A stretch of DNA of 64,000 bases. Origin: a phage. Positions within the stretch are counted from its first letter, which is position 1; each line of letters begins with the position of its first letter. The position numbers were made by a program, and so were the translations under genes. This document shows positions 3,253 to 53,508 of this stretch, piece by piece. The stretch lies in NCBI GenBank assembly GCA_020773975.1, contig GCA_020773975.1_3638.1. The stretch is one strand, 5' to 3'. Under the pieces are notes generated by a model, which was given only the letters and a program-made list of their open reading frames with translations, ran no database searches and had not been told where the DNA came from.

Positions 3253-3567
3253 ATGTCTATTGACCTATTTGCTATCTTAAAAGCCGTATGGGGCGTATTG
3301 ACGTTTTTCTTAGTTGGTGTTCTGAAGCTAACATACTCAGACTATAAAAAGACACAACAACGTCTTGATGAACTTGATAGGGACATCATAAGAATTAAGG
3401 CAGAAATGGTCACTAAAGAAAAACTTGATGAGATTCTTGATAAAAAACTGAAAGCTGTCCGCGATGATGTTTCAGATTTTAGAAAAGACTTAAAAGAGGA
3501 TGTAAGCAGTTTGAGAGTTGATCTTATAGACCGGCTTAAAATTCTTATAGAGAGCCAAATGAAATGA
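3253..3567 (+). CDS. small membrane-anchored coiled-coil protein
   Basis: N-terminal hydrophobic segment followed by charged heptad-like region. Confidence 0.4.
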   Translation: MSIDLFAILKAVWGVLTFFLVGVLKLTYSDYKKTQQRLDELDRDIIRIKAEMVTKEKLDEILDKKLKAVRDDVSDFRKDLKEDVSSLRVDLIDRLKILIESQMK

Positions 3568-15183: not shown

Positions 15184-15501
15184 CATCAGTTCAGAGAGTT
15201 CGTTACGCTCTCCCGCACCATTACGTGCATAGCCACAAGATTTCTCCTGTGGGTCGGACTATCTCATCCTCCTGATATTAAGGAGGCCTCCCGTTTCGAC
15301 CGCACTTGCTGGCCTACTCTACTCGCTTTCACATTACTAGTGTGCTTTCGATAGTCTCTGAACGTTCATCCCATAGGGATGCTTCGCTGCGGATTAGCAT
15401 ATTGAACTTTTGCTACTTTTACGTATAAAAGCCAGCTTAGCCTTCCCGTCAATTAGAGAGGTTTTCGACATGCATTACTGCATGAAGCCACAATGTTATT
15501 T
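15184..15501 (-). ncRNA. group I self-splicing intron (ORF-less, 318 nt) in DNA polymerase gene
   Basis: P/Q/R/S-like elements AAUUGACGGGAAGG, AAUCCGCAGC, GUUCAGAGACUA, AGAUAGUCCGACC; IGS GUGG pairs with exon end CCAU; ends in G. Confidence 0.8.
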
Positions 15502-17913
15502 ATGGTAGTAGATAACCCTCCTGACACCTTGGTCGTACCATCCCCATTTCACCAATTCCCAATGGAACAGGACTCCCATGAGGTCAAACAATGAAGCACC
15601 ACCGTTTTGTTGGTAAGCATTCAGCAGAGAATGTTTAGAACGAGTCCAAATTTTACGCCCGTCCATGCCTGGAATATAGCGTCTCCCATTTGCCTCCCAG
15701 AATTTTTCCAACCACTCCCTACGCATTTTCAACCCGAAGTTACTATCCCAGAATGCATCTATTACAGCCTGTGCTCTATTAAGGGGGATACCCAGCATTG
15801 CGGCTATCTTAGGAGCTTGTGCTCCATACATAATTCCATACGTAACCCCCTTTCCTCCAGAGCGTGTTACCTCCTTTCCTGCTGCTATTGTGTATGCTCT
15901 TGCGTTTCGTTCATGGGCATCCTCTTCCATCATGATACGTAAATACTCACCACCATCAAACTCAAAAGCCCCTGCCGCTGCAATCATACCTTCTAAGTTA
16001 GATCCATCACAACCCATCAGGTAGTAGCCTTCAGGGACTGTCCAAAGACCCCGCATTTCTTTTCCCAACAAAACCTTCGGATCAGGCTTGGGCATGTTTG
16101 CGCAAACAGTATGCTTGCACCTGCCCGTGTTAGTGATTCCAGAAAAACGTGCTGGAAGTTTTCCGTCAATGTCTAAACGAGGGTGATTTAATAACCCTGT
16201 ATCCGTCTTATCCTCATCCATTGGGTCTAAAACAGATCGCCTGTTACGAAGTGATAGCCACTTAACAATCTGTTTTGCCATATGCACATCAATTTTCTCC
16301 AAATTTGGACACAGATGCCCAAAATTATCTTTTAATTGAGGAGATGTCGGTAACTGGCGTGCTTTACGCCGAAATTTCTTAAATATCTCTGAATAACCCC
16401 TTTCAGATGCATGGCGATGGTCAAACTTACGCTCTGAAATGTTGAATTTCTCATCTGAATCATTAAGGTAGTCAAGAATAAGAGATTTATACTCAGACTC
16501 TGCCAACTCTTCTATGTACTTCTTAACTAGTACATCAATTTCAGAATCTTCACGAGTCTTTTTAAATTGATCCTTAGTAACATCTTTTACGCGCCACAGT
16601 GTAGGTTTCCAACCAGCATCTTTGATCAAATATTTTTTAATATCATCCTGATTAGAGATTTTCATTGGAACCATTAAATCTGGCATTTTTCTGTTTCGAA
16701 GGTCTTCTTTAGCCTTCTCTAGAAGATCCGGCGGTAAAGGTTCGAGTGTGTTCTCTTTGGTTCGCTGGGAACGAATGAAATCACCGTATAAAGCCGGATC
16801 TTCAATGCCATTCTGGATGCAATATCTCTCCCCTGCTGCACTTACATCCCCATTGCTCTTAAAAGCTGTTTTTGGTGGAGCTTTAAACTCCAGAGCTTCC
16901 CTGTTAACAGGATAGCCAAGTTTATATTCCAACCAATTCCACCCATGATGAGATATATTACCCGCTGTGTCAAAAGGGTTAGCTGGGAATTTTGGTTGTT
17001 GAGATTTCGTCATCTCTTTTTTTGGAAGAAGTGGTTCTACCTCTTCTTCAATTTCTCGCATCATCTTATCTATGCGATCTCTTAATTTTTCTGCCTCCTC
17101 CCGATTAAAGTATACGCCTTGTATTTCTTGCTCTATCATCAAATAGTCTGTGAGCATTCTCCTACGTAATGCATTTTTCCAATTAATCTGGTGCATCCCG
17201 TGAGGTTTATCAGTGTACATAAACTGCTTGTCATCAGGCCATCGCGTACCATTTGACTCATCAATAAGAGCTTTCCACACAAGTTCGTTAATGATAACGT
17301 CTTCCCACACACGGTTTACATATTCCCACAATGGCTGATTACGCCAATCATCAATCTGCACTTTCTTGTTTGCTACACGATAACCCCATGCCAATAAGCC
17401 GTGTGGCCCAACCCTGTCACGTTTTCCTGTTACAGGGTTCAATACAGAATCTGGGCAGCCATTAGGCAATGGGCGATCTGGGTAAAGAACACGACTCATT
17501 GAAAGAGTGTCGTAAAGATTTACCTGTTTATTACCTATCGTCCCCATACATTTTAGGTCTTTGAACATGTCATATTCAATCCCAGAAAGTTTTTTCCACA
17601 GACGTAAATCATAGCCGAACAGGTTATGTATTGCTATCCCTCTTGGCTCGGTCTGCAACCAAGAGTAAAAATCATCATAAGAAAGGATACGTAAATTAAC
17701 ACCTTCTTTGCTGCGTGCAAAATTAACTGCACTCTGGTATTCCTTGTGAGCAGGATCGAGAAACAACACCCAGTTATTTACAGCATATTCTTTAAAAAGT
17801 GTGCAGTGATATTTAGTTGCCTCTTCTAATAATCCGTCAGCTTCGTTATCTCCGACAAAAAGCCCTTTCATACTCCTCCTATTCAAGATGGGCTTGACTG
17901 TATCGTCGCCCAT
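15502..17913 (-). CDS. family A DNA polymerase, exon 1
   Basis: Motif B RSGGKGVTYGIMYGAQ; ORF runs 2 codons into the intron before a stop. Confidence 0.85.
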
Positions 17914-37444: not shown

Positions 37445-38881
37445 ATGCAAAAAGACGAACATGAAATGATTGCCAAGTTAGAGAAGGATGCTGTAAAAGT
37501 TATCCAATCGGCACGAATAGCTCTTTTAAAGTACAGACCATTTTACGGGACTTTGTTAAGTTCTCTACCCTTAGTTGCTAACTGGAAATGGTTGCCAACA
37601 GCAGCGACTGATCACAAAAACCTCTACTTCAACCCTGAGTTTATTATGGGTATGCCTGAAGAAAGGAAGAAGAAGGTTTTTGAGCGTGTGGATAATCACC
37701 CCACAATGACACAACAAGAAAAAGATGACTATAAAGACTATGTGAACGTATTTTATCGTAAGAAAACACCCAAAGAGGTTGTTGTTATTCTTATGCACGA
37801 GCTACGTCATATTACTAACGATCATTTATCCCGTGGAAAAGCATTTGATTCTAAAACCTACAACACAGCAGCAGATCATTATATTAACACGGATTTAGTG
37901 GTGTCTGATCTTGGGCCACGCTCCAGCCAGATGTGTTTCTTCCCAATGGGGAAACAGACAACCTTTGACAAAGGTAAAGAGTTTGGGTTTATGGCTTATT
38001 GCTACTGTGATTTTAATTTCCACGGTAAGACAGCGGAGGAGATTTACAGTCTCATAAACAAAGGCCAACCGTCTGTTGGTAAACCTATGGGCACACACAT
38101 AGGTGATTATGATCAAGACAGCAATATCCTAGGATATGAAGATCCTCACCCAGTGCCAAGCCAAGCAGAAAAAGATGATAATATGTCGTGGTCATCTGGT
38201 CTTATCGAGGCCGCGATGGAAGCAGCGGGAGGAGAGGGGCCGAAAGAGGTGCGTGACGTTATTGCAAGAATGCGTAAACCACACATAAATTATCTTCAGA
38301 TAATCAAACAGCGTATGCTTTCTCGGATCAAGTCTAACCTGACATACAGGAAACCATCTCGTAGGTCTGGATCTATGACACAGGCACTTCGGCAGTATGG
38401 AGCTATTGGAAAAAAACAGCATATTGTTTTACCAGGAAGGGAGTACGATAATACTATAGATATAGTTATTGGCTTCGATGTGTCTGGATCAATTTCGAAG
38501 GCGAATTTAGACAAAATCTTCGGAGAAATTGTAGGATTATGCCAGCTTTACCGCGTTTTTCGCGTGACATTGTTCTGTTGGTCAACAAAAGTCGGAGAGG
38601 TTAAAGTTTATACACATGATAATATCAAGGAAATGCTTGATTATAAAGTAAATTCTACGGGTGGGACACTTGCAGCATCGGCTTTTGAGTATATTGAAAA
38701 TAACATTTTTGATGCAAAAGACGTTATTATTTTTACAGACGGATATATAGAGGATTTAAGACACAAGAAAAAAGATTGGGGACGCAAATGGGATATTCTT
38801 TGGGTTATTTGTGGTCGCGGAAATAATAAATTTGTACCACCTTTCGGAAGGGCTGTAAATTTAGATGAACACGCAAAATAA
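37445..38881 (+). CDS. putative metallopeptidase (HExxH) fused to vWA domain
   Basis: LMHELRHI zincin-like motif; C-terminal MIDAS-like DVSGSIS. Confidence 0.55.
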   Translation: MQKDEHEMIAKLEKDAVKVIQSARIALLKYRPFYGTLLSSLPLVANWKWLPTAATDHKNLYFNPEFIMGMPEERKKKVFERVDNHPTMTQQEKDDYKDYVNVFYRKKTPKEVVVILMHELRHITNDHLSRGKAFDSKTYNTAADHYINTDLVVSDLGPRSSQMCFFPMGKQTTFDKGKEFGFMAYCYCDFNFHGKTAEEIYSLINKGQPSVGKPMGTHIGDYDQDSNILGYEDPHPVPSQAEKDDNMSWSSGLIEAAMEAAGGEGPKEVRDVIARMRKPHINYLQIIKQRMLSRIKSNLTYRKPSRRSGSMTQALRQYGAIGKKQHIVLPGREYDNTIDIVIGFDVSGSISKANLDKIFGEIVGLCQLYRVFRVTLFCWSTKVGEVKVYTHDNIKEMLDYKVNSTGGTLAASAFEYIENNIFDAKDVIIFTDGYIEDLRHKKKDWGRKWDILWVICGRGNNKFVPPFGRAVNLDEHAK

Positions 38882-39378: not shown

Positions 39379-39430
39379 GGGGACACAATACTAACTGATC
39401 AAATTAAACTAACTTATAAGATCTATTAAA

Positions 39431-39564
39431 TATAATACTACGTATTATAATACTATGATCTATTTAATATAATATATTATACTACGTATAATATAATTTA
39501 ATATGATCTAATATAATATAATATAAATTATATAATATAATTTAATATAATACTACGTATTATA
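39431..39564. repeat. very AT-rich segment with three copies of inverted repeat TATAATAC-TAC-GTATTATA
   Basis: Copies at 39431-39449, 39476-39492, 39546-39564. Confidence 0.7.
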
Positions 39565-40040
39565 TATTATAATATATATATTATATAAAATTTATTTAAA
39601 ATACACTAAGTCTTGAAGAATGTCAAGACTTGATTTTAAATATTTTTGTTGATATGATTCGATTGAGTCGAATCGTATGGTTCGATGATTTCGAATCATA
39701 GAGTTCATAGTGTTTTGCCTGAAAGTGTGAGTCGATGAGACTCTTCAGGCAATACGTGAGTGTGTAAGATGCTCACTGCGCTGATAGCTTGTGACCATCT
39801 AACCCTCATGAGCCATTCTGAGATAAACCCACATCAACAAACCCTACAGGTTTGTCTCTGTGTGTTGATCTCAATCATGGATTCGGGTTGTCACAGGTCA
39901 CTATGTGACTCTGTGTGTGGGGGATTTTGAATGTGTACCGGAGCATGGCGCACAGGACTGGTTCATCTGTCTGTCTCAACTGGGGCGCGGCGGGTGTCAA
40001 GGTTTAGTTTTACGTTTGTTTGGGTGTGGAGGAGAGTTTT

Positions 40041-40905: not shown

Positions 40906-41520
40906 ATGTCTTGGCCTTTTTTGATTTATCTTATTGATGTTCTTAGTACGGATGGGAAGTATGATGGCTGGGGATTCTTGTTGTTTCTGTGTGTTATTGT
41001 ATACATGCTGATGCGTATTCTTCCAAAGATCCTCGAAAAACCTAAGCTGGATATCTATCCAGGACAAAACCTTGTTTTAGCACAAGACTGGTCACGATTT
41101 AAAGCCGGAGATGTTCTTGTTGTGAAGGATACTGCGGGTGGTGATGTTCTTCTTCGCCACGGGGAGGAATCACTTGGTTATTGGGTGGGTAAGAGCATTT
41201 TACGAAAAGTGTGCAAACTTGATGAAAAACAAGAATATATCCCACAGCAAGATGCGATGGAAACACCGCGAAAGTTAACTGTTATTGCTATGGTTGTCTG
41301 TGTAATAGGTATTCTATATGCCAACTTCATGCCGCAGAAAGAGACTTCTTACAAGATGCTTGCTGCGTATGTAGGTCAAAACATTGTAGAATCTCCAAGG
41401 ACTCAACAACTTGCAGACAGCACAATCAAGTATCTGGATGCCCAAATCAAGAAGTACACCCAAGAATTGGGTGACGAGGGGAGTAAGGAGTCTAAGCCTG
41501 GTGAGAAGGTGAAAGAATGA
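40906..41520 (+). CDS. membrane protein
   Basis: RBS; two hydrophobic segments. Confidence 0.45.
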   Translation: MSWPFLIYLIDVLSTDGKYDGWGFLLFLCVIVYMLMRILPKILEKPKLDIYPGQNLVLAQDWSRFKAGDVLVVKDTAGGDVLLRHGEESLGYWVGKSILRKVCKLDEKQEYIPQQDAMETPRKLTVIAMVVCVIGILYANFMPQKETSYKMLAAYVGQNIVESPRTQQLADSTIKYLDAQIKKYTQELGDEGSKESKPGEKVKE

Positions 41521-42119: not shown

Positions 42120-42944
42120 ATGACAAGTATTTTACACACGACAGGTATTTTACCACACTATCAGAAGGACTATTCTTTCCCTGATTTCTCTGGGGATATG
42201 TTGCAAATATACGACAAAGTGCAAGGCGAAGTGTCGGAGCTACAGTTTAGTTCAGACCCTGATGATGAGCAAGAGTTTGATAAACAGATTTGTCGTGTAG
42301 AAAACGAGCTTATAGAGCTACAATCATTAGCCAAATCAACAGATATCGAAGACTTAAGGCGATACGTCGAGAATCTTGAAAATTTAGTGTTCGGGCTTTC
42401 GCAAGCTATTATAAACATTGGTGAAATTGCTAAAATTGCCTCTGACAAGTTGCCAGACAACGCAGAAGATATTGAAGAAGCGTTGCAGAATATCTGCTAT
42501 GAAGGAAGTTCTGCTCTCGGTTGTGAATGTAATCTAGGAAATGCTCTTGAAGAACGTGGGTGGAGCCTAGCCCAAAAAACTTTTGTTTATCTTGTTATTG
42601 GTGGTGAGTTCCCACGACTTTTACAACTTAATGCCCTTTTTGGAAACAGTCAGAGCGATAATATTGCATTAGGTATTGATGGTTGGTTCTGCTTAAGAGG
42701 TAAAGAATTAACATTTTGTCGTGGCGATGATGTGTTAATTCTCAATGCTTCTAAACCTGGTGTTGGAATAACAGTAAGACTTAATGGTAAGTCCACTAAT
42801 TTCCACACCACAGAATTGACAGATATTTTTATGGACATATTCGATCCTACAGAAGACGAAATTCTTATGTATGAAATGACCAGTGGAAAAAGGTATGATA
42901 TTTTGTTGTGGAGAAATATTTTCGGTAAGAAGAAAAGTTTATAG
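42120..42944 (+). CDS. hypothetical protein
   Basis: 274-aa ORF. Confidence 0.45.
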   Translation: MTSILHTTGILPHYQKDYSFPDFSGDMLQIYDKVQGEVSELQFSSDPDDEQEFDKQICRVENELIELQSLAKSTDIEDLRRYVENLENLVFGLSQAIINIGEIAKIASDKLPDNAEDIEEALQNICYEGSSALGCECNLGNALEERGWSLAQKTFVYLVIGGEFPRLLQLNALFGNSQSDNIALGIDGWFCLRGKELTFCRGDDVLILNASKPGVGITVRLNGKSTNFHTTELTDIFMDIFDPTEDEILMYEMTSGKRYDILLWRNIFGKKKSL

Positions 42945-43204
42945 TATGATATTTTATCGCTGATATTTGTTTTCCCTGTGATATTTTTGTCACAGGGAAA
43001 GTTTCAACAACAGATATTTTCTTGATACTTTAAAACTCTACCAGAATTTAAAATTCTGTAAATTTAGAAAACTATTACTTATAAGCGTTTCGACACAATT
43101 TTGTTATGAAAGCCTTGTTTTTATATAAAAACCTGTTTTAGCATGAGTGGTAGGATCACACTCCATACTACCTTTATTCCTACAGATGAGCACCTCCATG
43201 TCCG

Positions 43205-43420
43205 AAAACTCGGTTCTCGATCGAAAATTCATTTTCCAGATCGTATTTGCTCCTTACGGAGAAAATTTTTTAGGGCTACAAATTTCAGTTCTCGATCAGT
43301 TTTTCGATTTCAAAATCGTATTTGTTTTTTCTTGCGAAAAATTTCGCACGCTCAGTTCTCGATCGAGTTTTCAAAATCGAAATCGTATTTGCTCTATAGC
43401 GCGAAAAAATTTTTATGGGT
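43205..43420. repeat. three tandem direct repeats of 67-75 bp
   Basis: Cores GTTCTCGATC(GA) at 43213, 43288, 43355 and ATCGTATTTG at 43240, 43315, 43382. Confidence 0.7.
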
Positions 43421-43796
43421 ATCATAATTCTATCACACACTTAAACGCAAAGCAACATAAAAATTTTTGTTGAATGATAATCATTCTTATTTGCATAATG
43501 ACAGGCAGGAGCGGTGTCTTATCCTCCCCCGTTGACCATCGTCGCCGTAGTTTGAAGTTTATAGCCGTTCTCGGCTTATATCTTTGTTAGATATAGATTA
43601 GCATAATTGATAAAGAAAGCAAGTTTTAGGCATAATCTTTACGTTTCTTTACAAATTTATTTTTGACGAGTTACCGGCGATCGACCTTCCAACCAGCGCC
43701 CTGATATGTTAGCCCCGCCTTTACGCCGTGGGGATGGCGTTTCCTCTTCTGTATGTGAAACATTATAAGCCCGACCCCCGGGCTTGTCAAACATTT

Positions 43797-44063
43797 TTAT
43801 TGTTTATTTTCTTGCCAGGTTAGGACACCTAGCCAGAAATGGCAATCACCTTTCGCCCATTGTGGTATATTGCTTTCTTTCCCACCTTCCCGCGCCCAGG
43901 AATAACCGCCCGTGTAACTTTGCAATTGATAACTATCCTCGACCTTATAATCTGACAGGCTGAGAACTGTTTCTACCTTTAAGCCCGTTGCGCTCGCTAC
44001 CTGGTGGATAGTTCCCCCTTGCCAGCCTAACGCGTGCATAAGGTGCAATGTGGTAGTGGTCAT
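43797..44063 (-). CDS. hypothetical protein, antisense to the early block
   Basis: RBS AGAGGAA upstream; GC-richer than surroundings by eye; hairpin AAGCCCGACCCCCGGGCTT just downstream. Confidence 0.4.
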   Translation of the reverse strand: MTTTTLHLMHALGWQGGTIHQVASATGLKVETVLSLSDYKVEDSYQLQSYTGGYSWAREGGKESNIPQWAKGDCHFWLGVLTWQENKQ

Positions 44064-44142
44064 TTTTTCTATTCCTCTGTTAGTTGGCTAGTTGTTAAAA
44101 TTATATCTATAACCAGCCAGGTTAGCAAGGCAAATAAAAGAG

Positions 44143-44193
44143 AAAAATTTTTTAAAAATAGTATTGACAGCGGGGGTAGTATAGATCTACTAT
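44143..44193 (+). promoter_or_regulatory. sigma70-like promoter with A/T UP element (cassette copy 1)
   Basis: AAAAATTTTTTAAAAATAGTATTGACA then 18 nt then TACTAT. Confidence 0.5.
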
Positions 44194-44248
44194 GTGCACA
44201 TCAAGGCGATACACCGCCACCAACCAACCTAAAAAGGGGTGAATTAAT

Positions 44249-48586: not shown

Positions 48587-48635
48587 AAAAATTTTTTAAA
48601 AATAGTATTGACATACTGGCGGCATATGGTATCAT
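48587..48635 (+). promoter_or_regulatory. sigma70-like promoter with A/T UP element (cassette copy 2)
   Basis: Same 27 nt AAAAATTTTTTAAAAATAGTATTGACA as at 44143; TG-extended -10 TATCAT after 16 nt. Confidence 0.5.
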
Positions 48636-48686
48636 TTACCACATGAAGGGGCGAGATTGACTTGCCTCACTAACGAAAGGTAAATA

Positions 48687-50567: not shown

Positions 50568-50951
50568 CCCTAACAAGCATGATAAGTTTTATCTATCAAA
50601 ACACCACACAGAAAAAAGTGAATAAAACGCGGTATCGAGCTAAACGAGGGTAGGCAGTACAACGGCAAGGGTAAACAATTAAGGCCGTTATAACGCGATT
50701 TAGGCCGCTTAAAATCGATCCCCATCACGAACAACCCCCATAATCTGACCAAAACGACACAACATGACTTAAATGATAACCATTCTCAACAACATAAGAA
50801 TTTTTATGCAATTTTAGTGAATATCTATTTAAATGATAATGACTCTCAACAACAAAATAACACGACCGAAGCGATTTAATCGCCTATCACAAAACAAATC
50901 AATTGTAAAGAACAATTTAAAAGCTGCGTAAGTGGCGCGACCGTAGGGAGC

Positions 50952-51177
50952 GACACAATAACGCAGTAGTAACCCCTCCCCCTCACTCCTTACAGTCGCC
51001 CGGTATCGGGATAGCGTTATTATGTCGCTACGCGCCAACGCGTTAACAATTTTGCAAAGAAGCCTGCTTTGCAGGTTAAGCGCATTGCGCTTAATCGCGT
51101 AGCGACTATGTGAAATTATAACAGTTAAATTATTAATAAAATCTTGCAAAATTGTTAACCTACTGCGTTATTGTGTC
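50952..51177. repeat. nested inverted-repeat locus (three different perfect IR pairs)
   Basis: 18-bp pair 50952-50969 / 51160-51177; 11-bp pair 51024-51034 / 51096-51106; 16-bp pair 51042-51057 / 51144-51159; central hairpins. Confidence 0.7.
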
Positions 51178-52047
51178 CTGTATATAATTCGTTAAATTAA
51201 CCAAATTAATCCCCGATTATTACGCAGTAAATCACCTGCTTTTAACCCTGTTAATGTGCCACGTAGTGATCTGCTATCTTGCCCAGGGATAACCGCATGG
51301 CATGCGGTTAAATGCTGTTAAGTGCTTGAAATGCCAGATCAATTTGGTCACTGCGTGATTATGATTGCGACAATAATTTGCTATTTATTTGTTATAATTT
51401 GTTATAATTTGTTAAACACTCTTTTATCTTTTCTCTTACATTTTCGTTATATTTGATTTGTTATCGTTTTCCCTCATTTCGCTTCGTTATTGAAAACAAG
51501 AATTATTATCATTGATACGCCTTAACAGGCTGGCGGGTCTGTTAGTGGTCTGGCTCTCTGTGTGGTCATGTTGTTATTGGTTGTGATAGCTTGGTTTTAT
51601 TGTCTGGCCTGTTATTGTTAGCTTGCTTATTGTTGTGTGGTGTATGTATTAGTTAGCTAGTACATTAGCTGGTGCGCATAACGTGTATTATGTTAAATCA
51701 GGTGGCCCACAAGTAAGGTGGCTTGTCAATAACAATAAGTGCTATGTGCGGTAGTCTGGCCCATCAGTGTGCCCCTTTGTTGTGTGGTGCTCTCAGTGTG
51801 TGACCTGTCTGCTGTGTGCGCTGCGCCAAATCTCGAGCGGTTCTCGATCACAATAGCTGTAGGATATTTTCAAAACATCCGAATTTCCATCGACACCCCC
51901 AGCTCATCTGCCTGTCACCTCTGAGATAAAGCTGTAGATATTTTCACTCCTCACATCATGCACAAGTTAATACATGCAAGTCTTTACAGACAGGGGTGGG
52001 TGGTGTAAAATACCTGTGCCAACAGTACAAAACACAGAGGAGGTTTA

Positions 52048-53508
52048 GTGGCAAAACAGTTCTTTGACAAACATTACATGGAAACGCATTTTGTAGAGAA
52101 ACCTCTGCATCGCCTGAACTTTACAGATTTAGAAGGAATGAGGTTTGGCAAGATAACGGTGCACAAACTTAACAGAAGAGAGGATAAGTCTTTTGTGTGG
52201 TGGTGTACGTGTGATTGTAACCCATCCAGATATTTTATGGTTGTGCCTTACTCACTTAAAACAGGGGTGACAACATCTTGTGGTTGCAATTATAAAACTA
52301 ATGGAGGGAATATACATGAAACACTCCAAGAGTTTCAAAAGAAAGTTGGTGGTGATTGGGAGATTATCTCATACCAAGGTAGAAAGCACGATTGTGTTGC
52401 CAAATGTACTATGTGTGGGAGTATTGTCACCAAACAAGGTGGCTCATTTATCTGCGGTGTGACGTGCCATTGCACTGATAAAAGAATAAAGAGGCGTGAT
52501 GATATTTTGCATCTTGCGGGGTACAGTCTGATCAAAGAAGAGAAAGTTCAACAGCAGAATGGTGAATATATAATGCACTTGCGCTGTAAATCTTGTGGTG
52601 TTAAGAAACTGACGCGAAACACGGAGTTAAGGGATTTAAAGCCATGCCTGTGTAGAGGCGACCACACCAACAATGGGAAACCTTGCGCCATTTACCTGCT
52701 TTCACATAAAGATGGTAAGTATTGTAAGATTGGTAGGTCTTATAGCCCCTCCTCAAGATTACGTATGATTAATGGTTCTGGTGGCGACTTTATATTGGAG
52801 CATGTTTGGTGGACACCTAACTATCACTACGCATCTGTGCTGGAGACAACACTCCACAGGGAATTTTCTGAGCATCGCTTTGACGCTGGTGGTTTCGATG
52901 GGAGCACAGAGTGTTTCTACATAAAGCCTGACAAATTGGCAAAAGGAATATCTGAGATAGTCGCCAAGTTGGTTGGGGATTACAAACCTGAAGATGGGGT
53001 GTTGACAAAAGATGTGAAGATAAGGAATAACTACAAGAACAGCGGTATGATTGTGAAGTCTAGGAGTTATCACTTCAAAGAGTCAGATGTGTGTTTGTGG
53101 ATACCTTATAAAGGGTATCTCAGAAAGAAGAGATCCCCATTCTCCTCTTGGGAGATGGCAGAAGAGTGTCACTATTTAGCTGCAAATGTGCAGCCTTCCA
53201 AAAACTTAGATAGGTTTAAAATTTATGATGTGGATGGGGTTACTGACTCCATAGCAGGTTGGTCAAGGAGAACTGGAATCCCTGCTCAGACACTTACGTG
53301 GAGAATGCAACGCACAGGCATGACAATGAAAGAGGCGATTAATTATTGCAGACCAGACACTGTTATTTGGTGTGGCGGGAAAATGGTTAAGAAGAGAGAT
53401 CTTAAAAGCATTATCGGTGTTTCTTGGGAGTCGGTTTATACAGCATCCAGAAAAAGCAAGAAGTCCCCAGAACATATTATAGAAGAAATACTGAAAAGGG
53501 CCACTTAA
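52048..53508 (+). CDS. free-standing GIY-YIG/T5orf172-like homing endonuclease-like protein
   Basis: GTG start with RBS AGAGGAGG; Cys-rich N-terminal repeats; AIYLLSHKDGKYCKIGRS; C-terminal HTH-like IAGWSRRTGIPAQTLTWRMQ. Confidence 0.5.
   Translation: MAKQFFDKHYMETHFVEKPLHRLNFTDLEGMRFGKITVHKLNRREDKSFVWWCTCDCNPSRYFMVVPYSLKTGVTTSCGCNYKTNGGNIHETLQEFQKKVGGDWEIISYQGRKHDCVAKCTMCGSIVTKQGGSFICGVTCHCTDKRIKRRDDILHLAGYSLIKEEKVQQQNGEYIMHLRCKSCGVKKLTRNTELRDLKPCLCRGDHTNNGKPCAIYLLSHKDGKYCKIGRSYSPSSRLRMINGSGGDFILEHVWWTPNYHYASVLETTLHREFSEHRFDAGGFDGSTECFYIKPDKLAKGISEIVAKLVGDYKPEDGVLTKDVKIRNNYKNSGMIVKSRSYHFKESDVCLWIPYKGYLRKKRSPFSSWEMAEECHYLAANVQPSKNLDRFKIYDVDGVTDSIAGWSRRTGIPAQTLTWRMQRTGMTMKEAINYCRPDTVIWCGGKMVKKRDLKSIIGVSWESVYTASRKSKKSPEHIIEEILKRAT

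Follow-up and report, generated by a model that had tools for sequence, protein, structure and literature searches.

The DNA analyzed here (the window) is a 64,000-nucleotide stretch of phage sequence which, on sequence comparison, is assigned to the rV5-like Vequintavirinae, being about 95% identical to phage Av-05. The region from 42.9 to 44.3 kb has 94 to 95% identity to Escherichia phages Av-05 (Avunavirus, Vequintavirinae) and TH18. Minus-strand genes between approximately 7 and 35 kb encode a family-A DNA polymerase, the gene for which is interrupted by a group I intron, a gp4-type primase/helicase, a Dda-like helicase, and rIIA. A family-A polymerase with a gp4-type primase/helicase is the replisome type described for rV5-like phages (PMC3606486). 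A plus-strand block of small early genes of unknown function extends from approximately 36 to 54 kb, and within this block lies a 1,304-bp gap (42,945 to 44,248) which is the largest non-coding region of the genome and its main control region. As the preliminary description stated, this 1.3-kb gap holds a set of direct repeats together with a GC-richer segment and an antisense ORF at 43797 to 44063. In the rV5 genome paper such a region was marked only "non-coding," skew analysis failed, and the origin was left undefined (PMC3606486). In the present window, GC skew varies only with the direction of transcription and does not point to an origin. The rV5-like phages and the related myoviruses of approximately 140 to 150 kb are among the most often isolated therapeutic coliphages and phages of Klebsiella, Salmonella, and Cronobacter, and the origin of replication and early control circuitry of the rV5-like group are so far unknown. 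A literature search on this group, covering the array, the origin, and transcriptomes, returned nothing specific, and no description of the array was found.

A repeat search returned one family with three 63-nt copies at 43209 to 43271, 43284 to 43346, and 43351 to 43413, with start-to-start spacings of 75 and 67 bp and 67 to 75% identity to the reference copy. Tandem Repeats Finder did not report the array, owing to the low similarity of the copies (only about 70%). The three units are direct repeats on the same strand, starting at 43212, 43287, and 43354, and each comprises an indel-free 36-bp core, GGTTCTCGATCG-N16-ATCGTATT, followed by an A/T tract. The 10-mer GTTCTCGATC was found exactly at 43213, 43288, and 43355 and the 10-mer ATCGTATTTG exactly at 43240, 43315, and 43382, these being the only three occurrences of each in the window. 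The offset between them is a constant 27 nt, leaving 17 nt between the two 10-mers; the gap had previously been put at about 15 nt, a figure which counts GA. An exact 10-mer is expected approximately 0.1 times in 128 kb of two-strand sequence, and the occurrence of two 10-mers, three times each, in register within 180 bp is far beyond chance. The repeat search and the exact 10-mer positions together confirm the three tandem 67- to 75-bp direct repeats that had been noticed in the sequence.

The unit 1 core (43212 to 43247, plus strand, 36 bp) reads GGTTCTCGATCG AAAATTCATTTTCCAG ATCGTATT, with box A at 43212 to 43223 and box B at 43240 to 43247, and its tail (43248 to 43286) contains a T-rich stretch, a short hairpin-capable sequence, CTCCTTACGGAG, and an A4T6 tract (43262 to 43271). 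On the same strand, the 36-bp core of unit 2 (43287 to 43322) is AGTTCTCGATCA GTTTTTCGATTTCAAA ATCGTATT, with an inner sequence beginning GGTTTTTC that is orthologous across genera; its tail (43323 to 43353) consists of T6, GCGAAAAATTTCGC with an A5T3 tract at 43337, and a GC-rich junction abutting unit 3. The 36-bp core of unit 3 (43354 to 43389, plus strand) is AGTTCTCGATCG AGTTTTCAAAATCGAA ATCGTATT, and in its tail (43390 to 43425) an A6T5 tract (43404 to 43414) is followed by the conserved GGGTATC...TCACACAC. A/T-rich tails, also part of the preliminary description, are thus present in all three units, and A(n)T(n) tracts are of the kind that bends DNA. The array itself has average duplex stability (z = +0.3 to +0.5) and is not AT-rich. 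It also carries the densest GATC cluster of the window, in a genome that does not avoid GATC.

Self-comparison of the core gave a best offset of exactly 20 bp (columns 9 to 19 against 29 to 39), and all eight top scores had this offset. The mean was 6.97 identities out of 11, compared with 5.74 ± 0.45 for the maximum over column-shuffled controls, which places the half-site statistic only about 2.7 standard deviations above control. In unit 1 of the Erwinia phage the two halves are identical at 11 of 12 positions. These results give moderate support to a site composed of two tandem half-sites separated by two helical turns. Each 36-bp site would then be bipartite, with two related half-sites of approximately 11 bp (ATCGnnTTTTC ... 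ATCGTATTTkC) spaced 20 bp apart, and since 20 bp corresponds to two helical turns, both would lie on one face of the helix. The only helical phasing found within the array is that of these putative half-sites.

The array was found at the same syntenic spot, with exactly three units, in all 31 of the 31 genomes or contigs compared, which were drawn from six genera: Avunavirus, Mydovirus, Seunavirus, Certrevirus, Henunavirus (Erwinia phage), and Vequintavirus (Murica). Both the core motif and the copy number are therefore conserved in relatives; two apparent copy-number exceptions were accounted for by a regex miss and by a GenBank record broken inside unit 1. Alignments of the array to many Vequintavirinae showed 72 to 75% nucleotide identity (about 73%) with invariant blocks. 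In Avunavirus, Mydovirus, Seunavirus, and Certrevirus the core is exactly 36 nt, with zero indels in 45 unique units and the consensus GG[T/G][T/A]CTCGATC[G] - N4 - TTTC - N9 - A[T/A]CGTA[T/A]T. The conserved blocks occupy core positions 1 to 12, 15 to 19, 24 to 27, and 29 to 36, about one per helical turn; part of this invariance is imposed by the search pattern, and the BLAST and MAFFT alignments agree with it. Spacing in the same four genera is likewise narrow, at 74 to 78 bp between units 1 and 2, 63 to 68 bp between units 2 and 3, and 141 to 143 bp between units 1 and 3. Five genera have the A(n)T(n) tail, which is replaced by GC-rich sequence in Certrevirus, while GATC has been lost from the Henunavirus units, so neither feature can be essential, and Dam/GATC dependence was rejected as a universal requirement.

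The gene directly upstream of the array encodes a protein of approximately 275 amino acids in all genera, only 16 to 39% identical between them. Compared with this neighbor, the array, at about 73% nucleotide identity, is under much stronger constraint, exerted at the nucleotide level. No other non-coding sequence found at the locus is as strongly constrained, and the conservation of the array is the strongest result of the analysis. The adjacent protein itself (274 amino acids in the window, with 39 homologues found) is syntenic in all genera and had no Pfam or PHROG function; its AlphaFold model, with a pLDDT of 48.7, was too poor for a fold search.

Several GenBank records have ORFs annotated across the array, for example, Mydo_054, GAP31_043A, and a PVP-SE1 ORF, implying that it encodes a small repeat protein. 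Two forward frames are indeed stop-free across the array, and the Certrevirus spacings (78 and 63) hold all units in one frame. However, the reading phases of the units differ among genera ([2,2,0], [2,1,1], [1,0,2], [0,1,2], and [1,1,1]), and close Mydovirus relatives are separated by 1-nt indels (66, 67, or 68). There was no 3-periodicity, the variation being 21/20/19 over the three codon phases when summed over orthologous units, and the would-be third positions are invariant across the very genera whose real proteins are 16 to 39% identical. A coding function is therefore extremely improbable. The long ORFs arise because the T-rich units happen to lack stops in the forward frames, and the earlier suspicion that they are artefacts of the repeats was borne out by the frame, periodicity, and indel tests. 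The array thus corrects database annotation, in that the ORFs called over it in several GenBank records are spurious.

Alternatively, the array may act as RNA, being transcribed with the early operon to give tandem small RNAs, a processed repeat RNA serving as decoy or antitoxin mimic, or unstructured protein-binding sites of the boxA/nut type. The units have the orientation of early transcription, the upstream gene and the array are not separated by any convincing terminator, and recognition of RNA by sequence only would likewise yield invariant blocks and concerted changes. When 30 to 35 unique cores were analyzed with RNAalifold, however, both strands gave an empty structure (energy 0) with no covariation, the sole high mutual information being between adjacent columns. 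The whole array from nine genomes of six genera gave -5.3 and -4.4 kcal/mol over approximately 220 nt with a covariation term of at least 0, and the sole helix predicted, which pairs the self-complementary TCGATCG of one unit with that of another, breaks in the Erwinia phage. Folding of single units gave no improvement over shuffled sequences (z of -0.8 to +1.0), the units have no promoter or terminator of their own, and the locus had no Rfam match. The only match in the window at the Rfam gathering threshold was the group I intron at 15.2 kb, and in the E-value scan the best matches at the locus had E values of at least 0.26, below the gathering score. Tandem small-RNA genes, which the preliminary description had offered as an option, are on these grounds unsupported.

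The relative PhiTE, an rV5-like phage that also has tandem non-coding repeats, uses repeat RNA against ToxIN (PMC3475682), and the 36-nt length of its pseudo-ToxI repeats coincides with that of the core. The PhiTE repeats, which mimic a type III antitoxin, differ in lying at another locus, in having an unrelated sequence, and in having 36 nt as their period (PMC3475682); they also vary in copy number and can expand, fold as RNA into a pseudoknot, and are linked to a ToxN toxin, none of which holds for the array. The 63- to 78-nt period and the inter-unit identity of about 70% (67 to 75%) are likewise unlike type III antitoxins, and no ToxN/AbiQ-like gene was present among the neighbors. A type III antitoxin or pseudo-ToxI identity was therefore rejected, since the near-identical, spacerless repeats of approximately 34 to 45 nt, the RNA pseudoknot, and a neighboring ToxN/AbiQ gene are all absent, and an RNA-level role in general appears unlikely.

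Three further identities were considered and rejected. Tandem sigma-70 early promoters, such as T7 A1 to A3, which would place -35 and -10 hexamers 16 to 18 nt apart in each unit, were not found by a consensus scan inside 43,205 to 43,425, and box B of Henunavirus (TGGATTTTC) has no -10 character. A scan for intrinsic terminators found none in the array, where the tail hairpins are only 4 to 6 bp and an A run separates the hairpin from the T run. A CRISPR-like mini-array did not fit either, since the repeats differ in their central 16 nt and the would-be spacers (A/T tract and GC junction) are conserved across genera.

The boxes were then compared between lineages. Positions 10, 11, 31, and 33 of the core are invariant in the 45 units of the four genera and are altered in all three units of both Henunavirus and Vequintavirus. 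The three units of the Erwinia phage read GG[G/T]ACT[C/T]GA[A/G][A/G]GG ... AATGGATTTTC, giving the Henunavirus core version GGKACTYGARRGG ... AATGGATTTTC, and those of Murica read GGTACTCGATCT ... [C/T][C/T]GGATTTTC. Judged from these sequences, box specificity has switched in concert at least twice. Despite the change in the boxes, the inner sequence specific to each unit has stayed orthologous, as for GGTTTTTCAAAATCGA of unit 2, which is found in Erwinia, Mydovirus, and Seunavirus phages. Gene conversion was rejected as the cause because it would have homogenized the inner sequence, which remains unit specific, and a host factor was rejected because it would not change. The simplest reading of a concerted box change with an orthologous inner sequence would be a co-evolving trans factor, encoded by the phage, whose recognition specificity has shifted. 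The promoter downstream of the array (see below) is unaltered where boxes A and B have changed, and the divergence of the adjacent 274-amino-acid protein, which was considered as a candidate for the trans factor, does not correlate with box type. In Phapecoctavirus, which belongs to a different subfamily, the same slot is occupied by another three-unit repeat family, and the flanks are kept, including the GATATTT cluster, TTATCTCAAA motifs, four Fur-like palindromes, and the GC-rich element. This replacement appears to fit cognate pairs of site and protein.

The distribution of the motif was also examined outside the locus. When 185,579 bacterial genomes were scanned with a 17-base degenerate pattern, the matches listed were only isolated single ones in unrelated taxa, in about the number expected by chance, with none in Enterobacteriaceae among them, and a host operator was ruled out on this basis. 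In viral contigs, multi-copy matches were confined to Vequintavirinae-type contigs of approximately 145 kb. Within the 64-kb window, neither the boxes nor the half-site occurs elsewhere above chance, which argues against the regulon of a general transcription factor.

The direct orientation, fixed number and spacing, strong constraint, helical periodicity, absence of coding or RNA signals, confinement to a single locus, and concerted change all fit a binding-site array, and we consider it likely that a phage-specific protein binds duplex DNA at the locus, through an array of three bipartite sites. The earlier proposal of iteron-like or regulator-binding sites is supported to this extent by how deeply sequence, copy number, and spacing are conserved and by a constraint that acts on nucleotides. 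The three head-to-tail sites would bind a lineage-specific, sequence-specific DNA-binding protein, most probably encoded by the phage, and each would be followed by an A(n)T(n) tract of the DNA-bending kind, so that with all three sites occupied, approximately 200 bp would be organized into one nucleoprotein complex. The array provides a concrete and cheap experimental handle on the cognate protein and on origin function.

On its upstream side, the array adjoins a flank (42945 to 43145, plus strand) with same-strand GATATTT motifs at 42948, 42962, 42980, and 43013, and GATATTT clusters are conserved in other genera. Duplex stability at the locus is lowest from 42,980 to 43,145, which lies 70 to 230 bp before unit 1; among all 200-bp stretches of the 64 kb, this one ranks second in instability, and for this reason the flank may serve as an unwinding segment. 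The first rank belongs to a TAATA repeat elsewhere in the window, at 39.4 to 39.6 kb. On the downstream side, the array is flanked by convergent sigma-70 promoters. The first, a conserved plus-strand promoter just 3' of the array (43459 to 43499), has an A5T5 UP-type tract, a -35 element TTGAAT (43470), an 18-nt spacer, and a -10 element CATAAT (43494), and is overlapped by a putative Fur-box-like palindrome with the core AATGATAATCATT at 43473 to 43485, recognized by the textbook consensus. The second belongs to a conserved GC-rich element on the minus strand (43640 to 43790), which would be transcribed towards the array, from approximately 43755 to 43640, from a perfect TTGACA-17-TATAAT promoter at 43790 to 43762. 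Neither a DnaA box (TTWTNCACA) nor an IHF site (WATCAANNNNTTR) was present in 42,945 to 44,248, and both occur at chance frequency in the window.

Next, we considered what such a complex might do. The nucleoprotein complex would mark or organize the replication origin of these phages with a T7-like replisome; it would adjoin the most easily melted segment of the locus, and the convergent host-type promoters could activate or prime the origin. This reading is favored because the array is found at a single locus, because it has a putatively meltable flank and flanking promoters, because the replisome is T7-like, and because no origin is known for the group. It is held only tentatively, because the geometry is atypical and neither a recognizable initiator nor host-factor sites were found, and we therefore put forward an iteron-type origin organizer as the leading possibility rather than as an expectation.

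Iterons occur in the theta-type origins of plasmids and phages, with four O-protein sites in lambda ori, three iterons in pSC101, and five in P1 oriR, and classical iterons are repeats of 17 to 22 bp placed approximately 22 bp apart. Like iterons, the array consists of several direct repeats in the same orientation at a single locus, close to DNA that is A/T-rich or potentially bent and to a candidate melting segment. It has a fixed copy number, and its site sequence is lineage specific and changes in concert, as expected with a cognate initiator. It differs from iterons in its apparently bipartite cores of 36 bp rather than 17 to 22 bp, in their separation by 63 to 78 bp rather than approximately 22 bp, and in lacking a recognized initiator gene and DnaA or IHF sites. 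Its origin activity is putative, and no initiator protein was identified for it. Among repeats of the iteron or operator type, the array is unusual for the 36-bp length and bipartite form of its cores, for a spacing of about 70 bp, and for a strictly constant copy number.

The primary origin of T7, a phage with the replisome type named after it, comprises the tandem promoters 1.1A and 1.1B followed by an A/T-rich segment. The present phage resembles T7 in encoding a family-A polymerase and a gp4-type primase/helicase, in having strong promoters and A/T tracts in a non-coding block of the early region, and, in Mydovirus, in having short direct terminal repeats. The array differs from the T7 origin in that its units are not promoters for any recognizable polymerase, and the promoters lie beside the array and not within it. 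To our knowledge, rV5-like phages have no phage RNA polymerase.

The same sites could instead form an operator or enhancer array, in which a phage regulator, whether repressor, activator, or anti-silencer, occupies the three sites and acts on the Fur-box promoter 80 to 260 bp downstream, the convergent minus-strand promoter, and the early promoter at 44164; in a variant, the regulator blocks read-through from the upstream early operon. The array would then be an early-to-middle switch and not an origin. All of the evidence for protein sites on duplex DNA applies equally to this reading. In addition, the conserved Fur-box-type promoter always follows directly downstream of the array, with 116 to 119 bp from the start of unit 3 to the -35 element in three genera, and the locus is dense in promoters and candidate ncRNAs. 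A5T5 tracts are enriched in the window (6 observed versus 0.9 expected), serve as UP-type tracts ahead of the identical strong early promoters at 44143 and 48587, and are reused in the unit tails. However, the Fur-box promoter lies too far downstream of the sites to be occluded directly, and the main promoter of Certrevirus is 158 bp away, with additional Fur-like boxes in the interval. The Fur-box-like promoter is conserved in 322 genomes, including lineages with a quite different repeat family in the slot, which indicates that it does not depend on this particular array, and no further copy of the site lies near any other promoter in the 64 kb.

The resemblance to known operators is also partial. 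As in lambda OR1-3 and OL1-3 and Mu O1-O3, three sites for one regulator would lie in a non-coding control region with divergent or convergent promoters adjacent. Operators of the lambda type are dyad-symmetric sites of 17 bp, packed within approximately 80 bp and overlapping promoters. The array differs from these in being asymmetric, in its direct orientation, in its spacing of about 70 bp, and in its distance of 80 to 260 bp from the nearest promoter. An operator or enhancer function is possible without being probable, and is nearly as likely as the origin function.

Both functions could be linked to iron. The array, the Fur-box-type promoter or promoters, and the convergent GC-rich minus-strand RNA might jointly act, in a strictly lytic phage, as a developmental switch or origin that senses iron, a combination that we consider rather improbable. 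A phage initiator or regulator would occupy the three bipartite sites, and host Fur, bound at the adjacent operator or operators, would gate the activating or priming transcription. If this were true, phage replication or early development would be tuned to the iron status of the host, and a module with swapped site specificities would be common to more than 300 rV5-like and phi92-like therapy-phage genomes.

Finally, the array was considered in relation to the genome terminus. In Mydovirus KPP-1, PhageTerm placed a 514-bp direct terminal repeat at 116,316 to 116,829 (PMC9862379). This terminal repeat is located approximately 8.5 kb downstream of the KPP-1 array, in the orientation of the array, and its region is homologous in block structure to the second non-coding locus of the window, at about 50.9 to 52.05 kb, the match to the repeat itself being put at about 51.4 to 52.0 kb. 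The three units might be binding sites for the terminase small subunit, comparable to the three R sites of lambda cosB or to pac repeats. This would agree with the layout of three repeated sites separated by bends, which is reminiscent of cosB or pac, with the GATC cluster, a feature shared with P1 pac, and with one GenBank record (EC152) that is broken inside unit 1. The homologous terminus, however, is approximately 8.5 kb from the array, other records break at unrelated positions, and no terminase gene is nearby; the EC152 break was treated as an assembly artefact. Given the mapping of the KPP-1 terminus, a pac or cos role, and with it a packaging function of the array, is very unlikely.

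A fourth copy of the core motif had been reported 8 kb from the array, and it does exist as the exact 12-mer CGGTTCTCGATC at 51838 to 51849. It is without box B, and chance alone would yield approximately 1.5 matches of 12 nt to some part of the 220-bp array in the window. Mydovirus KPP-1 has GGACCGGGGACCGGATCGACC instead of the 12-mer at the homologous position, and the long Mydovirus loci had no counterpart of the fourth copy downstream. These comparisons suggest that the fourth copy is probably a coincidence and not part of the system. By homology to the KPP-1 direct terminal repeat, it lies within a probable terminal-repeat locus of the phage.

Immediately downstream of the array of three direct repeat units, the plus strand carries a promoter overlapped by a Fur-box-like operator (window 43459-43499; an A5T5 tract, TTGAAT, an 18-nt spacer and CATAAT). 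The operator includes AATGATAATCATT, an exact match to the 13-nt core of the Fur consensus, and the promoter is about 85% conserved across 322 phage records from two subfamilies. It is present once in Avunavirus, twice in KB57, EC152 and Murica, and three to four times in CR3 and ESCO5. The second non-coding locus of the window is also flanked by similar Fur-like boxes (50770-50790, 50830-50850 and 51499-51515), which take the form of a direct repeat of 60 bp, TTAAATGATAAYSAYTCTCAACAAC. The assignment to Fur was made solely by comparison with the textbook consensus, and at this level the boxes suggest that a lytic phage may be under iron/Fur control.

Downstream of this promoter, a candidate small RNA of approximately 80 nt was located on the plus strand (43506-43585), with a C-rich stretch, CCUCCCCC, and a terminator-like hairpin at 43563-43576; across genera, it is conserved to a lesser degree than the promoter. 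The opposite strand carries a highly conserved GC-rich element of approximately 115 nt (43640-43790) behind a perfect TTGACA-17-TATAAT promoter (43790 to 43762). This element was found in Vequintavirinae and in Phapecoctavirus/phi92-type phages, and its consensus fold of -16 kcal/mol contains one covarying pair (AU/GC, 5:5). No Rfam family matched it, and it is likely to be an undescribed ncRNA. Next to it, also on the minus strand, lies an 88-amino-acid antisense ORF (43797-44063, phrog_19316). Both the ORF and the GC-rich element are 80 to 91% identical to their counterparts in Phapecoctavirus, Justusliebigvirus and other phages, whereas the remainder of the locus is much less similar to these phages, suggesting that the pair may have moved by module exchange. 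In Mydovirus and Seunavirus the position of the antisense ORF is occupied by a different antisense ORF of about 62 amino acids, and in Certrevirus the GC-rich element is present without any antisense ORF.

Directly upstream of the array is a plus-strand gene for a protein of approximately 275 amino acids (42120-42944, phrog_12959). Such a protein occupies this upstream position in all six genera, with extreme divergence (16 to 39% identity), and the only feature common to the homologues is a C-terminal F.D...PT..E motif. In the AlphaFold model, which is of low confidence (pLDDT 48.7), the N-terminal part is helical and the C-terminal domain is small and of beta type. Six copies of GATATTT, all on one strand, occur within 200 bp upstream of the array (42822-43019), and the whole window holds 26 copies versus 17 ± 4 expected. 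A comparable cluster occupies the equivalent position in all genera and in Phapecoctavirus (for example, positions 2240-2290, 3300-3335 and 960-980 of comparison loci L011, L025 and L170, respectively). In the other genera the cluster is followed by two to three copies of a TTATCTCAAA motif and by AAATGGTTTTC pairs, which are similar to the half-site of the array.

In Phapecoctavirus ESCO5, the position taken by the array in Vequintavirinae is filled by another family of three direct repeat units, [G/A]TGAAAGTWSAAAASCAAAATTTAAAGTTTA (L170 1225-1400), upstream of four Fur-box-like palindromes. In Enterobacter phage EC152 (PP681140.1), the array appears to have two units because the linear GenBank record is broken within unit 1, where both of its ends lie (L023 1-70; L024 2440-2478). 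At the junction, box A lacks about 8 nt (TACTCGAT); the break probably arose during assembly, at the repeat.

The densest cluster of GATC (Dam) sites in the window, five per 250 bp versus a mean of 0.95, is at 43112-43361 and comprises one site per box A plus additional sites. Genome-wide, GATC is not depleted (observed/expected, 1.06); the depleted tetranucleotides are CTAG (0.25) and TCGA (0.52).

The block structure of the second non-coding locus (approximately 50900-52050) is homologous to the terminal-repeat region of Mydovirus KPP-1, in which PhageTerm maps a 514-bp direct terminal repeat (PMC9862379). By this homology, the locus probably represents this phage's physical genome terminus or concatemer junction. 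GATATTT is present there at 51863 and 51937, as is the box A 12-mer at 51838, which is not conserved.

The lowest duplex stability in the whole window was found in a nearly pure A/T repeat of the TAATA type (39430-39602; period, about 44), and this repeat is a candidate alternative unwinding element or origin. It lies in non-coding DNA between two plus-strand ORFs, of which the first ends at 38881 and the second starts at 40906. The early region is enriched in A5T5 tracts (6 versus 0.9 expected), and two identical early-promoter cassettes, AAAAATTTTTTAAAAATAGTATTGACA..., were found at 44143-44193 and 48587-48640; in the first cassette, the one covered by the -10 scan, the -10 element is TACTAT with an 18-nt spacer. 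A group I intron (15236-15511, minus strand; Rfam RF00028, 81 bits) adjoins or interrupts the DNA polymerase gene (ORF 15496-17913).
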